Shown here: positions 1 through 40,933 of the stretch, piece after piece | Numbering within the stretch: the first letter of the stretch is position 1 | Layout of the letters: every line of letters starts with the position of its first letter | Source: a virus | UHGV virus genome: UHGV-0179541 | Length of the DNA stretch: 40,933 nt | Strand: one strand, 5' to 3' | Notes under the pieces: model-generated | Told to the model about the DNA's origin: nothing | What the model saw: the letters and a program-made list of their open reading frames with translations, nothing else | Databases searched by the model: none | Position numbers and translations under genes: made by a program

Positions 1-762
1 TTACTACGCCATTGATAATACGCTTTTATATATTGAAGATGTAGAAAATAATAAACCATTAATCTAGCTAAAGTTGGATGCTTAAGAAATGCTTCATAAT
101 TCAGTAAGGCATTAGCATAATGGGAATAAAAGTACAGAGACTATCCCTATGGATGATAAATACTGTCCTTTTATTGCTACCCATAAATAATCACCATGCC
201 AATACTATCAAATTGATATTTGAAATGTGATCACTTGACTTTCTATACGTTATTTTATAACGGTTAATATATTTATAAAAACAACGGGTGTGCCATACGC
301 CCGTTTCAATACTTAACGCACATGTGTTTTGGTTTAGTCATCATCCAGTTATATGTATTTTAGCCAGGAACAGGTTAAACCTTTCCTATATAACTCAAAA
401 ATTGAAACCTTATTCTCATGTCATGCTTATATTCATTATTATCGTTATATAAAAAGGCAACCATAATGTTTAGCAAATTGGCACAAAGTAGCATAAAGGC
501 TATGTTTTAATTACAGGATGTTCAGTCATTTGAATGTATAACATTATAGCTAAACAAATCTAAAACGAAGTGAATAATTTATTGTTTTCACTAAATCTCA
601 TTTTGTTTAACATCCATTGAGATTCCTTGCTTTAAATTTTGTTTTATATAAGCAATCGTTTTAATTAATTTATTTTTTGAAGGGGTAATATACTCATATG
701 CAAAATAAAGAAATGAACATCCAAATGAACTATATTAAATACCGTGGGATAAGACATAACAA

Positions 763-1086
763 ATGAAGTGGATAGTAATTGACACGATAATTCAACCTTC
801 ATGCGGCATATCTTTTTCAGCCATATGGGGTAATATGAAAATGATCATCTGGTATCAATCTACTATATTTCTCCCTCCTGGCAGTATATTTACACCGGTT
901 AAATCTGGAATTATCCTTAAAGATAAAGAATATCCTATTACTATTTATAACATCGCACCATTCAACAAGGATTTATGGAGTCTACTCAAAAGCAGTCAAG
1001 AGTGTCCTCCAGGAGAAAGAAAAATAATAAATAAATGTTTGCATAATAGTTGCATTATAAAAATATGCCCATATGGGCTCAAGTAA
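763..1086 (+). CDS. iraM: IraM-like anti-adaptor protein, chromosomal flank outside the prophage
   Basis: 107-aa ORF in AT-rich flank next to the displaced icd fragment; N-terminus [12 protein letters not shown] recalled as IraM/YcgW, which neighbours e14 in E. coli K-12. Recall only, not searched. Confidence 0.5.
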
Positions 1087-1142
1087 AGGGTTTTATATAA
1101 ATATGCTCGATATGCTATTAATAATACCTACATAAATAAAAC

Positions 1143-1165
1143 AACGGGCGTGTTATACGCCCGTT
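1143..1165. terminator. Hairpin AACGGGCG-N7-CGCCCGTT, terminator-like, shared by iraM and the ancestral icd 3' end
   Basis: Perfect 8-bp stem read directly; T-rich tract follows on the minus strand; near-copy of the hairpin after the functional icd stop. Confidence 0.5.
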
Positions 1166-1188
1166 GCAATATTAAACACATGTAGTGA

Positions 1189-1353
1189 TTACATGTTCTT
1201 GATGATCGCATCACCAAATTCTGAACATTTCAGCAGTTTAGCGCCTTCCATCAGACGCTCGAAGTCATAGGTTACGGTCTTCGCATTGATTGCGCCTTCC
1301 ATACCTTTAACAATCAGGTCTGCGGCTTCAGTCCAGCCCATATGGCGTAACAT
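1189..1353 (-). pseudogene. icdC: icdC: displaced 3' fragment of icd (last 54 codons plus stop) at the prophage/chromosome junction
   Basis: About 165 bp homologous to 40541..40705; translates to [54 protein letters not shown], identical to the C-terminus of the icd ORF at the window end; homology stops at 1353. Confidence 0.85.
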
Positions 1354-1494
1354 TAGATTTAGAAAATTATTATATCCAATTGAATTAAAACAATTTTATA
1401 CTTAACGAACATCTAAACTTGTTTTTTTACCTTCACCATAACTCGCTGATTTTGTATAGTTTACGTAGCGTTTTGATAACCACTTTATGGCAAA

Positions 1495-17532: not shown

Positions 17533-18738
17533 TTACGCCGCTGCAATCTTCAGCAGTTTGATGGCCTGCGAATCGACCAGCATCCCGCCGGTGCGCTTGG
17601 TGGTATAAAAACCGACAAACGGTTTATTGGTGTACGGGTCACGCAGAATGCGGGTGCCGATACGGTCAACGATGGTGTAACCCCGTTTGAAGTTACCAAA
17701 TGCAATGGCTTTCGCATCAGCGGCGATATCCGGCATCTGTTCGTTTTCAGCGATACCGTAACCCGCCAGAGAGGACGGCTGCCCCAGTTCCAGCCCCGGA
17801 CGCCACAGATAGTTACCCTCGGTGTCTTTCAGCAGACGGATGGCAAACAGGCTGTTGTTGTTCATCATGAACTTCGCGCCAGTGCGGTGTGCCTTACGCA
17901 GCGTGTAAATCAGTTTGATAATGGCGTCTGCGGTCACCGCGGTCGCTTCGCCGGATACAATATGCTGAAGTTTGCCGAACGCCCGGACCTTGTCGGTTTC
18001 ATCAGTGGATTCATACGCCAGGAACCCTTTCGGCTTCTTGGTGCCATCGCCTGAGGTAAAGGCAATTTCTTCCTGTTCGGCAAATTCGGTTGCCAGCTCG
18101 CTGTTGATCCAGGCCTCCACGTTGAAGAAGGCATCGTCCAGCATTTTCTGGGTAGCCTGCGGGTTGCCGTAAATTTCCCCCATGAGAGGTTCAATCAGCT
18201 CCAGTCTGGAGGTGGCAGTCTGGGATCGCGTATCCGTTTCCCCCACCCATCCGGAAGCCGTACCGCCCAGATTCACCAGTTTTTTGTAGTCGGAACCGCC
18301 AACGGTGATCACCGTGGCTTCCTGACGCATCACCACTTCATCTTTCAGCAGGTTAAGAATGTTGCGATCCAGTTCTTCCGGCACGGCGTAGCCACCGTCT
18401 TCATCGGTACCCACCTGCAATGCCTTACGCTCCAGATCGCGCAGACCGTCTTCACGGCCTTTACGCAGGAAGCCCACAAACGCCTCTTTATGCTCGGTGG
18501 CCAGTTTATTTTGCGCTCCACCAGCCGGACGTTTCAGCTCAAGCAGCTCTTTTTCAAGGTCGCTTTTGAGATTTTCCAGCTCGCTGAGTTTCCCGTTCAG
18601 GGTTTCCACCTGCCCGGCAAGTTTGCCTTTTTCCTGCTCAATCGCATCCACGCGCTTGTCGTTCTTTGCCTTGAAGTCGTCAAACTTCTGCTGCAGCTCC
18701 TGCGCGACCTGTTCCACATCTTTAATATCAACCGCCAT
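17533..18738 (-). CDS. Major capsid protein, HK97 family
   Basis: 401 aa with N-terminal coiled-coil delta-domain-like region; follows the prohead protease. Confidence 0.8.
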   Translation of the reverse strand: MAVDIKDVEQVAQELQQKFDDFKAKNDKRVDAIEQEKGKLAGQVETLNGKLSELENLKSDLEKELLELKRPAGGAQNKLATEHKEAFVGFLRKGREDGLRDLERKALQVGTDEDGGYAVPEELDRNILNLLKDEVVMRQEATVITVGGSDYKKLVNLGGTASGWVGETDTRSQTATSRLELIEPLMGEIYGNPQATQKMLDDAFFNVEAWINSELATEFAEQEEIAFTSGDGTKKPKGFLAYESTDETDKVRAFGKLQHIVSGEATAVTADAIIKLIYTLRKAHRTGAKFMMNNNSLFAIRLLKDTEGNYLWRPGLELGQPSSLAGYGIAENEQMPDIAADAKAIAFGNFKRGYTIVDRIGTRILRDPYTNKPFVGFYTTKRTGGMLVDSQAIKLLKIAAA

Positions 18739-18752
18739 CGTATTTCTCCTGA

Positions 18753-19439
18753 TTAGAAGTTCAGATTTTTCAGTGCATTCAGTGCAGAGCCCACATCCTC
18801 AGCGTCGCGCAGGGACAGTGCGCCATAGCCCCCGGCCATGAATGCTTTGGCCTGGGTACGGGAGAGTCCGACATCACGCAGGACTCTTTCGATTTTTTTC
18901 TGTTCGGGGATTTCCCCGCGGGCCAGCGCGTTCTTGACGTCGCTGATCCGCGCCTCGTCGTTAGACGGAAACGTCACCAGACTGACTTCCCAGAGGTCGA
19001 TTTCTTTCAACAGAAAGGCTTCTTTGCTCCGGTCGTATTCCCAGTCTTTCAGGACGTACCCAATAGAAAGGCCGGTTAACGAACCGGCCTTCATGTGTGC
19101 ATGTGCGCGTTTTGCGAGGGGATCATCATCAATAAGCAACCGTCCCCTGACGTAAAGTCCGACATCGTCTTCCTTCATTTCAGTGTAAACACCGATGGGT
19201 TCATCCATGCGGTGCTGCCAGAGCAGCGCAGGTAACGCTTTTCTGTCACTCCACGCCCGCAGGGAAGCAGCAAATGCCCCGGACATCACCACATCATCGT
19301 GGCTGTCCTTTACACCAAAGACGGAGCCATACCCTTCAAACTCACCGGAGTCACTGACAGATTTCAGACTCAGCGGTACATCAAGACGTTGTTTCGTCTG
19401 CATTGGCGTTATCCTTCTGCTTACCGGCTTTACTGCCAT
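18753..19439 (-). CDS. Prohead protease, HK97 family
   Basis: 228 aa between portal and capsid genes. Confidence 0.75.
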   Translation of the reverse strand: MAVKPVSRRITPMQTKQRLDVPLSLKSVSDSGEFEGYGSVFGVKDSHDDVVMSGAFAASLRAWSDRKALPALLWQHRMDEPIGVYTEMKEDDVGLYVRGRLLIDDDPLAKRAHAHMKAGSLTGLSIGYVLKDWEYDRSKEAFLLKEIDLWEVSLVTFPSNDEARISDVKNALARGEIPEQKKIERVLRDVGLSRTQAKAFMAGGYGALSLRDAEDVGSALNALKNLNF

Positions 19440-20622
19440 CGGAGGGTTTCGTGGTCATGTTCATCGGTGTGAGATAGACATCCCCACCGGGACGCGGATT
19501 CATATCTTCCAGGTCGCGGCAGTCATTGGGAGAGTAAATTCCCCAGTTAATCCCGGTGGCGTAGGCTTCAAAACGGGACTTCATATCCCCGCGCAGTAAC
19601 GCCCCGGCGTTAAATTTGGCGTAATAAACGCCCTGCTTACTTTTTCGTACCAGTCCGGTGTTGATCCGCTGCTCAATGCGGGTCAGATACGGCACCAGTG
19701 AATAGTTGATAAATCCCAGCCCCAGTTCTTCGATATTGTTGAAGGTGGCACGATCGGTGTTCTGCACCATGTGCAATGGCACACGGAACAGACGACAGAT
19801 TTCTTCAAGCTGAAACTTGCGGGTTTCCAGGAACTGGCTGTCCTCGGCGTTCAGCGCCATCGACTTCCAGTCCAGCCCCATCTCAAGGATCATCGGGCGG
19901 TGAGCATTGCCAAGCCCGGTGTGACGCTCCTCAAAATCTTTCTTCAGGCGCTCATAAGCCTGATCTGACAGCGTCTGCTCTGTACGCAACACACCCGACG
20001 TCACCGCGCCATTGCTGAACAGTCTGGCCCCGTGCTCTTCGGTCGCAGCTGCCAGCGATATTGCCTCGCGGGCATAGGCGATGGGATTCAGCCCCACCAG
20101 TCCGTCCAGCGTCAGCGTACGCACATGCCAGATATCCTCCTGGCTCAGTACATCCGTGGAGCCATCCGGGAATGTGACCTGATAGATCGGCTCCCAGCTA
20201 CTGTTAAGCTTCGGTACCACACAGCCGGGATCGACGGGCAGCAGTTCAGCCACTTCGCCAAATGCTTTCACTTTGTAGGCGTAAAAGTTTCCCCGCAGGC
20301 ACAGACAGGTGACCACCAGCTCCCAGAACTCCTGCGGCGTCATATAGCCATTGGGATGCGTGGAGATCAGCTTATGCAGACGTTCGCCAGTGGCTCTCTG
20401 CTTCAGGCTGCCGTTCAGGTGATACAGGTTGCAGGGCAACATCCCGACCGACTCCGCCAGCACCCTGACACAGGAAAAAACCGCCGTCAGTCGCATGGCC
20501 CGCTGGCTGCTGATCTGCTTTCCGGTATAGGTGTCGTAGGACAACCCGATAGCATCCGCCAGCTCTGCTGGCGTGGTCACCGGTGCGTCACTTTTTCGTT
20601 GAAATAATCCCGAAAAGAACAC
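19381..20622 (-). CDS. Portal protein, HK97 family
   Basis: 413 aa after the large terminase. Confidence 0.75.
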   Translation of the reverse strand: MFFSGLFQRKSDAPVTTPAELADAIGLSYDTYTGKQISSQRAMRLTAVFSCVRVLAESVGMLPCNLYHLNGSLKQRATGERLHKLISTHPNGYMTPQEFWELVVTCLCLRGNFYAYKVKAFGEVAELLPVDPGCVVPKLNSSWEPIYQVTFPDGSTDVLSQEDIWHVRTLTLDGLVGLNPIAYAREAISLAAATEEHGARLFSNGAVTSGVLRTEQTLSDQAYERLKKDFEERHTGLGNAHRPMILEMGLDWKSMALNAEDSQFLETRKFQLEEICRLFRVPLHMVQNTDRATFNNIEELGLGFINYSLVPYLTRIEQRINTGLVRKSKQGVYYAKFNAGALLRGDMKSRFEAYATGINWGIYSPNDCRDLEDMNPRPGGDVYLTPMNMTTKPSDGSKAGKQKDNANADETTS

Positions 20623-35680: not shown

Positions 35681-35926
35681 ATGCTTCAAATGTTAACTCT
35701 TGAAGAATGGGCTACTGAAAAATACAGAAGCAATCCTCCAAGCGTGTCCACATTGCGTCGTTATGCTAAGCAGAATTTATTTTGCCCACCGGCCATGAAA
35801 CAAGGTCGGTTATGGCGAGTGCGTGAGGACGCCGAATTAGTTGGGGAGTTGGTAACGCCAATAATTAAGAAAAATGACTCATTACTTTTGCAACGGATTT
35901 TGAGTGATGGCAGCCAGACCGCGTAA
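35681..35926 (+). CDS. xis: Excisionase-like protein
   Basis: 81 aa overlapping the integrase start, the usual xis position. Confidence 0.55.
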   Translation: MLQMLTLEEWATEKYRSNPPSVSTLRRYAKQNLFCPPAMKQGRLWRVREDAELVGELVTPIIKKNDSLLLQRILSDGSQTA

Positions 35927-37034
35927 GAATAATGTTTCAGTCCCTAACTTATATCCGCTTTATAGTAGGAAGGTAAATAAAGTCTATTGGCGGTATAAGC
36001 ATCCAGTAACAGGAAAATTCCATGCTTTGGGAACAAACGAAGCTGAAGCTATCGCTATTGCCACTGAGGCCAACACTCGCCTGGCTGAACAAAGAACCCG
36101 GCAGATTCTGGCTATCAGTGACAGGATCGCAACCAGCAAAGGAAAGGCTATCACAACGTCAACCTGGTTAGATCGCTATCAAGCGATCCAGGATGACAGG
36201 CTTAAAAGTGGTGATATAAGACTCAACACCTATAAGCAAAAAGCTAAACCAGTATCCTTGCTCAGAGAACGAGCAGGAATGAAGTTGATCTCAGCCGTTG
36301 ATGTAAGAGATATAGCACAATTGCTTGACGAGTATATCGCTGCCGGGCAGCCGAGAATGGCGCAAGTCGTAAGGTCTGTATTGATCGATGTATTTAAGGA
36401 AGCACAGCATTATGGCGAAGTTCCGCCAGGGTATAACCCTGCTCTTGCGACGAAGCAACCCAGACGGAAAATTACCCGTCAACGCCTCAGCCTGGAAGAA
36501 TGGCAAAAAATATTCGATATCGCAGACGCCACTCATCGTTATATGGGAAATGCCATGCTCCTAGCTTTGGTCACTGGGCAGCGTTTGGGAGATATATCCA
36601 AAATGAAATTTAGTGATATTTGGGAGGATCATCTTCACGTCATTCAGGAAAAGACTGGAAGCAAAATCGCTATCCCTCTTTCTCTACGTTTGAATGCTAT
36701 CAATTGGAGCCTACGAGATGTAGTAGCTCGCTGCCGTGACTACGCAGTGAGCCCATACTTGGTGCATTTTTTCCGTTCAACCTCACAAGCAGAACGTGGT
36801 GCACAGGTTAAATCCAATACATTGACGATGAATTTTAGTAAAGCAAGGGATTTAGCAGGGATTGACTGGGGGGATGGCTCACCTGCCACATTCCATGAAC
36901 AAAGGTCTTTATCTGAACGCCTGTACAAAGAACAGGGGTTAGATACGCAAAAATTACTTGGTCATAAAACACAACAGCAGACCGATCGTTACCATGATGA
37001 TCGAGGCAAAGGATGGAGCAAAGTAGCATTGTGA
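35904..37034 (+). CDS. int: Tyrosine integrase (phage integrase family, icd-specific e14 / phage-21 type)
   Basis: 376 aa; C-terminal catalytic region ending HKTQQQTDRYHDDRG; prophage sits in icd. Confidence 0.85.
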   Translation: MMAARPRKNNVSVPNLYPLYSRKVNKVYWRYKHPVTGKFHALGTNEAEAIAIATEANTRLAEQRTRQILAISDRIATSKGKAITTSTWLDRYQAIQDDRLKSGDIRLNTYKQKAKPVSLLRERAGMKLISAVDVRDIAQLLDEYIAAGQPRMAQVVRSVLIDVFKEAQHYGEVPPGYNPALATKQPRRKITRQRLSLEEWQKIFDIADATHRYMGNAMLLALVTGQRLGDISKMKFSDIWEDHLHVIQEKTGSKIAIPLSLRLNAINWSLRDVVARCRDYAVSPYLVHFFRSTSQAERGAQVKSNTLTMNFSKARDLAGIDWGDGSPATFHEQRSLSERLYKEQGLDTQKLLGHKTQQQTDRYHDDRGKGWSKVAL

Positions 37035-40438: not shown

Positions 40439-40471
40439 TTTTGATAACTTGTTTTGATAAAATTTTGATAA
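40439..40471. repeat. Three direct repeats of TTTTGATAA near the att site; candidate integrase arm-type sites
   Basis: Copies at 40439, 40452 and 40463; the same TTTTGATAACC motif recurs at 1471..1481 near the other end. Confidence 0.4.
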
Positions 40472-40494
40472 CCGTTAGCAGCCTAACAAAAAAC

Positions 40495-40517
40495 AACGGG
40501 AGCGTTACGCTCCCGTT
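40495..40517 (-). terminator. Rho-independent terminator of icd (AACGGGAGCG-TTAC-GCTCCCGTT)
   Basis: Hairpin immediately after the icd stop, followed by a T run on the minus strand. Confidence 0.75.
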
Positions 40518-40540
40518 AATAAATTTAACAAACAACGGCA

Positions 40541-40933
40541 TTACATGTTTTTGATGATTGCGTCGCCAAACTCGCTACATTTCAGCAGTTTAGCACCTTC
40601 CATCAGACGTTCAAAATCGTAAGTTACGGTCTTGGCGTTGATCGCGCCTTCCATACCTTTAACAATTAAATCAGCCGCTTCGGTCCAACCCATGTGGCGT
40701 AACATCATCTCAGCGGAGAGAATAATAGAGCCAGGGTTTACTTTGTCCTGACCGGCGTATTTCGGCGCAGTACCGTGGGTGGCTTCAAACAGGGCGCATT
40801 CGTCACCGATGTTTGCTCCAGGGGCGATACCGATACCGCCAACCTGCGCTGCCAGAGCGTCAGAAATGTAGTCACCGTTCAGGTTCATACAGGCGATAAC
40901 ATCATATTCAGCCGGACGCAGCAGGATCTGTTG
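40541..40933 (-). CDS. icd: Isocitrate dehydrogenase, 3' portion (gene continues beyond the window)
   Basis: C-terminal sequence [38 protein letters not shown]; ORF open to the window edge. Confidence 0.9.

Follow-up and report, generated by a model that had tools for sequence, protein, structure and literature searches.

The stretch of DNA analysed here (UHGV virus genome UHGV-0179541; 40,933 nucleotides, called the window throughout) represents the icd locus of E. coli/Shigella in the orientation opposite to the K-12 map, as judged from its open reading frames and the RefSeq annotation of near-identical strains and of K-12. It opens on the plus strand with the 3′ end of ycgX (1-67), which encodes a DUF1398 protein (Pfam E = 1e-47) and is annotated in RefSeq in a strain of 99.9% identity, followed by the small ORF ymgL (120-230, plus strand, 36 aa), present in the ORF list and in the RefSeq annotation. 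Positions 226-277, to which no strand is assigned, contain a degenerate relic resembling the P arm of a phage attP site (TGTGATCAC / TTTCTATAC / TTTTATAAC ... GGTTAA), recognised by in-register alignment. Directly to its right, between ymgL and ymgK and 437 nt upstream of iraM, lies copy A (278-326, minus strand), a decayed paralog of the icd terminator comprising hairpin and spacer, found by repeat search and alignment. The adjoining positions 327-365 (minus strand) possibly hold heavily decayed 3′ codons of icd, not demonstrable from E. coli alone. After ymgK (466-510, plus strand, 14 aa; RefSeq annotation) follows iraM (763-1086, plus strand), coding for an RssB anti-adaptor of 107 aa; the locus is 95-100% identical on the DNA level to E. 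coli records annotated as iraM, including K-12 b1160. IraM gives no Pfam-A model match at E <= 0.001, though it belongs to a characterised family (IraM/IraL/RssC). Only some E. coli carry the gene, through which RpoS stability is controlled when cells are starved of magnesium.

The spacer 3′ of iraM (1087-1137, no strand assigned) ends in ...AAAAC and is, from comparison with the divergent genome G049 described below, a probable deletion joint onto the hairpin of copy B (1138-1185, minus strand, stem 1141-1167). Copy B, identified by terminator scan and RNA folding, is the intrinsic terminator of the icd gene as it was before the resident prophage. It is followed by icdC (1189-1353, minus strand; ORF list and K-12 icdC annotation), i.e. 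the displaced last 54 icd codons on the attR side of the resident prophage, which spans ~39 kb between icdC and copy C. The prophage encodes a lambda-type integrase (35904-37034, plus strand; ORF list) with Pfam matches to the arm-binding domain Arm-DNA-bind_1 (E = 1e-37) and to Phage_integrase. Its P′ arm contains a candidate arm-type integrase site exactly matching TTTTGATAAC (1471-1480, plus strand), its P arm three TTTTGATAA(C/A) sites found by sequence matching (40439-40472, plus strand). All three exact TTTTGATAAC matches in the window are located at the two prophage ends (1471; 40439-40472), and from its sequence and placement this motif is likely the arm-type Int binding site of the resident prophage. 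Copy C (about 40488-40540, minus strand; alignment and fold) is the phage-borne icd terminator now serving the intact icd, the 3′ part of which (40541-40933, minus strand; ORF list) extends to the window end that falls inside the gene.

The earlier note, made from the sequence alone, had reported the icd-terminator hairpin with roughly 50 bp around it recurring in diverged form upstream of iraM, and our repeat search of the window confirms this: a direct repeat of 43 nt at 278-320 and 1138-1180 shows 84% identity with a start spacing of 860. Allowing one 2-nt indel (AACGCACATGT in A versus AACACATGT in B) extends the match to 48 columns (278-325 versus 1138-1185), 40 of them being identical. 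The 28-nt hairpin core AAAACAACGGGCGTGTTATACGCCCGTT occurs at <=3 mismatches in exactly two places of the 40.9-kb window (278 and 1138) and in none of 100 shuffled sequences. The note had named a generic intergenic repeat at many unrelated loci as the case that would refute it; a 61-nt query covering copy A finds a median of two and a maximum of four places per genome in 5411 E. coli genomes, far from the tens to hundreds of copies of dispersed repeat families of the REP/BIME/ERIC type. Suspicion of a chance resemblance, or of copy A being a member of such a family, could arise from a short GC-rich hairpin within AT-rich intergenic DNA. This reading is refuted by the shuffles and the copy counts per genome, and the third copy lying at the far end of the icd prophage in the cases examined (the window and the nearest genome) speaks against it as well, so that we give it practically no credence.

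This third copy, copy C, is more diverged and shows compensatory stem changes (GGGAGCG/CGCTCCC); it adjoins the icd end of the resident prophage. In the nearest genome, G001, the third copy likewise lies ~41 kb away at the opposite end of the icd prophage. The comparison with strains lacking an icd prophage, which the earlier note had proposed, is informative: the prophage-free strain AR436 still carries iraM, copy A and copy B, and strains of this type retaining the pair shows A and B to be independent of the resident prophage. As side observations, 18-24 matches to the terminator element are on records classed as plasmids, and G001 (CP182557.1; completeness 44%) carries an identical ycgX-iraM-icdC stretch twice, at 18682-20042 and 4674464-4675824, near both contig ends, which looks like the untrimmed circular overlap of a noisy assembly and not like a real duplication.

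Copy B is the sole sequence in 1-1500 passing the terminator scan. It has the features of an intrinsic terminator, i.e. an 11-pair stem with 7 GC pairs and the tail TTTATTTATG, lies 3 nt from the icdC stop codon (1189-1191), folds as icd-sense RNA with -22.3 kcal/mol (z = -4.8) and has a stem that is invariant across all E. coli loci compared. Copy C is terminator-like in the same manner (-21.7 kcal/mol, z = -4.1). In prophage-free strains icd relies on copy B for termination, and transcripts of iraM probably end there too; in the window, icd termination is performed by copy C. The icd terminators of other enterobacterial genera have a C-type stem, suggesting the hairpin to be an old feature of icd that was copied by phages. 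Rfam returned only sub-threshold matches (tpke11 with 26 bits against a cut-off of 43).

Copy A has lost this function. Folded in the icd sense, its weakened hairpin reaches -11.4 kcal/mol (z = 0.05); copy A does not have the features of an intrinsic terminator, fails the terminator scan on both strands and has no gene ending upstream on the icd strand. K-12 has lost the hairpin, the stem is unbroken in SMS-3-5 and 042, and the changes that disrupt it elsewhere differ among the window, K-12 and IAI39. Copy A is no longer an icd terminator and decays differently by strain. On the plus strand it still folds with -16.3 kcal/mol (z = -2.7), making use of G-U pairs, and it lies just downstream of ymgL; together with the stem intact in SMS-3-5 and 042, this would fit selection maintaining copy A as terminator or insulator of plus-strand ycgX-ymgL transcripts that shields the iraM promoter, copy A then being no neutral relic. 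We regard this as very unlikely given that the plus-strand stem is followed by TTT only, that the scan fails on this strand too, and that the stem is disrupted in various ways while that of copy B stays invariant.

The origin of copy A is indicated by the structure of the phages using this site. It is established that integration of e14 and phage 21 into icd duplicates the gene end (PMC6379469 with reference to Hill et al. 1989). We found 28 isolated lambdoid phages (phage 21, ev017, 4A7, 1H12 and others) with a stretch 90-97% identical to window positions 1136-1353, consisting of the terminator and the last 53 icd codons. In all phages covering the terminator this homology begins at query position 37-39, corresponding to window positions 1136-1138, which is the left edge of the A/B repeat. 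The annotated genome of phage 21 (OL657228) has the order xis, int, three arm-type Int sites, terminator and ICDH-like pseudogene; the order icd, terminator, int is also present in prophage Sp8 of O157 Sakai, and in the E. albertii type strain a truncated integrase abuts the icd terminator. This truncated e14/phage 21-type integrase (L032, 839-1465; 208 aa of the C-terminal part) ends ~50 nt from the icd terminator, with one phage 21-type arm site (TTTTGGGGAAG) in between. Copy A resembles an attL-type junction in being a terminator copy homologous to the phage module with the homology starting at the A-run before the stem; in the window, no integrase gene is found next to its arm region on the left side, where ymgL and ycgX are located.

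Copy A might also stem from a local duplication of the terminator region by unequal crossing-over or slippage without any phage, iraM having arrived independently, and both the spacing of A and B of just 860 bp and the lack of a surviving phage gene in the interval would agree with this. The coincidence of the left repeat edge with the edge of the phage-borne module argues against it, and so does the sequence left of copy A, which resembles a phage P arm and shows no similarity to the flank left of copy B. The P arms of copy C and of phage 689R6 can both be aligned to this flank in register, and the K-12 and Nissle alleles of the flank appear, at the level of sequence, significantly similar to a TTTTGATAAC-type P arm. 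For the K-12 allele we obtained z = 4.3-4.6 (0-2 of 2000 shuffles scored as high) and a local score of 32, the best of 7000 control windows drawn from real sequence scoring 27. The window allele, carrying two extra substitutions, is weaker (z = 1.5-1.9; its score of 21 is attained in 0.45% of the control windows overall and in 4.2% of the AT-rich ones). In one scan an alternative alignment on the opposite strand scores equally, due to the sequence left of copy A being AT-rich and partly palindromic, and we therefore treat the arm-site evidence as moderate. No similarity was found between this flank and a phage 21-type arm.

The genes around copy A have phage relatives as well. IraM relatives with 64.5% amino acid identity are encoded inside lambdoid phages, and IraM-family genes being phage cargo elsewhere is a further point against a duplication without phage. 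YcgX (DUF1398) shows 44% amino acid identity to an ORF of phage lambda and is related to proteins of other lambdoid phages. In E. albertii, an IraL-like gene adjoins a gene for a prophage-type NanS-like esterase with DUF1737 and SASA domains. On the DNA level phages match only the iraM coding region (71% nucleotide identity) and the terminator, no phage match being found in 326-760. IMG/VR contigs encoding IraM at 91-99% identity were set aside as candidates for phages bearing a true iraM: nearly all of them end ~1.1 kb upstream of iraM, so that they look like prophage calls overrunning the attachment site and provide no independent support.

The most informative comparison is provided by G049 (locus L077), a very divergent Escherichia allele with the same arrangement as the window, i.e. 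ycgX, A′ (its counterpart of copy A), iraM, B and icd. Its full order is bluR, ycgX, A′, a YmgB/AriR-family gene, iraM, a TrkH-like gene, a 458-aa ORF, a TTTTGATAA-type P arm, B and icd. The right flank of A′ reads, in register, AGAGTTAACATATTCTTGAT compared to AGTGATTACATATTCTTGAT in B, matching at 17 of 20 positions with a perfect run of 13 nt and spanning the icd stop and the last four codons; for the whole right flank of A′ we obtained z = 5.5, reached by 0 of 5000 shuffles. The retention of icd stop and codons at A′ implies that the distal copy descends from a unit of terminator plus icd end. In E. coli, no significant icd coding relic is recovered right of copy A by free local alignment, and an anchored alignment of 327-365 to the icd 3′ end is not significant either (z = 0.75-2.2). 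The copied unit in G049 comprising terminator and icd end, and being in this the phage module, is the remaining point against a local duplication, an origin of copy A that we consider improbable.

How far G049 can serve as an outgroup depends on the part of the genome. In the ycgX-ymgL flank, E. coli alleles including that of Nissle are 92.6-98.2% identical to each other and 69-72% identical to G049, and the syntenic iraM ortholog shows 73% amino acid identity. The neighbouring core genes of G049 are close to E. coli (BluR 98% on the amino acid level, icd/rluE 96-100% on the nucleotide level), making G049 an outgroup for this locus and not demonstrably one for the genome. Its homology downstream of iraM runs to ...CAAAAAC, exactly where hairpin B begins in E. 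coli, and beyond this point G049 has a hairpin other than that of B, with 4.8 kb of other sequence separating it from P arm and B; this stop at the hairpin edge makes the joint of iraM and B in E. coli look like a deletion joint. The 86-aa YmgB/AriR-family gene of G049 (L077, 1825-2085) lies between A′ and iraM, at a position where E. coli lacks any gene. The segment between iraM and the P arm and terminator by icd (L077, 3391-7175) contains the TrkH-family cation transporter gene and the 458-aa ORF, the latter without a Pfam match; both may be cargo of a decayed icd prophage. The ymgL frame is broken in G049 by an 18-nt gap and many changes, and the ymgK frame is not conserved, meeting a stop after 10 codons.

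Other candidates for comparison were discarded. ECMA0423, considered as an albertii-like outgroup, is ruled out by icd/rluE being essentially E. coli sequence plus assembly noise, so that it counts only as an E. coli locus truncated by IS1; assembly noise in an E. coli genome also accounts for ECGI0523. In other Escherichia species, genes resembling ycgX neighbour pliG; these loci lack a terminator relic and are uninformative. The GC-richer group returned by a genus search from G001 matched icd alone (83-89% identity) and is not the Escherichia set used here.

The strain distribution gives insight into how iraM is lost. At least 80% of window positions 1-1400 are carried by 3844 of 5426 genomes. 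In about 1037 of the 5426 E. coli genomes iraM is missing exactly between the repeats, and one terminator copy alone links ymgL with the end of icd. Among the named strains in this state are Nissle, ATCC 11775 and NRG 857C, all of phylogroup B2; iraM with both copies is present in K-12 (phylogroup A), 042 (D), IAI39 and SMS-3-5 (both F). Every single copy examined (N) combines an A-type left flank with a right part that, beginning at the loop, is of B type or phage type. The marker ATAC is common to A and A′, and ATAT is found in B, N and C-type copies.

Genomes with exactly one copy, lacking exactly the DNA between the repeats, are what one would also expect if the iraM segment had entered the icd terminator as a small cassette in a site-specific or homology-driven manner and duplicated its target, the iraM-less strains then representing the ancestral empty site; an insertion of this kind would leave direct repeats around a variable segment. 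The structure of the single copy speaks for the opposite direction: its A-left/B-right junction indicates a secondary deletion and not an ancestral empty site. The A marker ATAC occurs also in the far more divergent G049, which is occupied, iraM being located between two copies there too, and the flank of the B2 strains nests inside the E. coli allele cluster; this cluster standing apart from G049 argues for the loss in the iraM-less lineage being derived. In addition, no recombinase gene is present, and the repeats differ by scattered mismatches instead of showing an identical core with unrelated arms. A cassette inserted into an empty site is therefore an unlikely explanation. We favour a crossover between A and B within the shared AAAACAACGGGCGTG stretch that would have removed iraM precisely in the iraM-less (B2-type) lineage.

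The right-hand part of the single copies occurs in three different alleles, and the phage 21 / E. albertii type is matched exactly by one of these. In the single-copy junctions L001 and L050-L053, at least three alleles are found right of the stem and the left flank stays chromosomal. The existence of at least three right-hand alleles indicates that phage alleles have replaced the icd end together with the distal terminator half more than once. A second route to iraM loss is indicated by IS1 truncations of the iraM region in two E. coli strains, at different points (L031, about 1800-2570; L003, 1788-2485); IS1 lies 40 nt from terminator B in ECMA0423 and inside iraM in ATCC 43886. O157 Sakai shows a larger loss by yet another route.

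Taken together, copy A is probably a fossil icd terminator left by an earlier phage insertion, icd carrying stacked and decayed prophage layers. Phages of the phage 21 / e14 type integrate inside icd bringing the last 53 codons and the terminator, by which icd stays intact, and each new integration would push the previous icd end and terminator outward. The window would then contain three stacked layers, read from outside toward icd. Layer 1 would consist of ycgX and ymgL together with terminator A and the remains of an integrase arm region, the icd end after A having eroded. Layer 2 would comprise ymgK, iraM, terminator B and icdC, iraM being cargo from the far end of the second element, the remainder of which would have been deleted up to hairpin B. 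Layer 3 would be the resident 39-kb prophage, including its arm sites, terminator C and the icd end supplied by the phage. Layers 1 and 2 retain neither an integrase nor a structural phage gene; that these elements had been phages, and in which order they arrived, we infer from the homologies and where they end, the number of copies per genome, their distribution over strains and the icd codons kept in G049. The terminator copies would in addition act as short homologies for recombination.

This agrees with the suggestion of the earlier note that serial integration and decay at the icd hotspot produced the arrangement, for which the edge of the phage module, the icd codons of G049, the P-arm-like flank and the phage relatives of IraM and YcgX now speak. 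Its further suggestion of the AT-rich iraM segment being itself an old insertion remnant is supported with respect to the phage cargo and needs modification with respect to base composition, in that the DNA left of copy A is equally AT-rich (28.5% GC for 1-277, 29.3% for 326-1137) and phage-like too. The ycgX/ymgL side having these properties suggests copy A itself to be a phage-type junction and not the pristine chromosomal terminator.

Compared to the attL junction of phage 21 / e14-type icd prophages, copy A has the same terminator hairpin, a left boundary equal to that of the phage-borne module and arm-site-like repeats distal to the hairpin, with icd codons following in G049; B/icdC and C of the window are textbook examples of the two junctions. 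It differs by having no adjacent integrase, by the loss of the 165-bp icd end in E. coli, by its decaying hairpin and by degenerate arm sites, and the relic would be at least one integration older than the normally annotated icdC. Tandem (piggy-back) arrays of prophages or islands at hotspots such as tRNA and tmRNA genes share the row of att-type repeats with remnants in between and the deletion of modules by recombination between repeats; here the repeated unit is the terminator of a protein gene and not a tRNA end, and of the three layers, two are reduced by decay to between one and three small genes. Prophage stacking and decay being well known, we regard the locus as a well-documented example at a known hotspot, of modest interest and ordinary kind, and not as a new mechanism.

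Earlier work reported iraM to be absent from CFT073 and iraL to be located on a genomic island (PMC4045071). The description of iraM, iraL and rssC as horizontally acquired genes given there fits the phage-cargo origin and variable presence observed here; that study does not mention terminator copies flanking the gene or the exact junction of the deletion, and in the literature searched we found no description of the second terminator copy or of this junction either. PMC4045071 places iraM "on the e14 prophage", a statement corrected by the K-12 annotation, in which iraM lies outside e14 and beyond icdC, and by prophage-free strains keeping iraM.

As a summary, we provide a concrete account of the arrival and loss of iraM, according to which the gene lies between two relic phage junctions at icd and would be lost by a clean crossover of two 48-nt terminator copies. 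The terminator of a protein gene can serve as the recurring recombination boundary of an integration hotspot. We put forward only tentatively, as a possibility we hold to be rather less probable than its opposite, that the whole AT-rich, E. coli-specific block distal to icd (iraM, ymgK, ymgL and ycgX, perhaps also bluRF and ycgZ-ymgAB) was built by repeated prophage stacking and pruned by recombination between terminator copies. If this were true, the stress and biofilm regulators IraM and those of the YmgB/AriR type would be domesticated cargo of successive icd phages, and the icd terminator hairpin would be a recurrent breakpoint deciding which of these regulators a lineage keeps.
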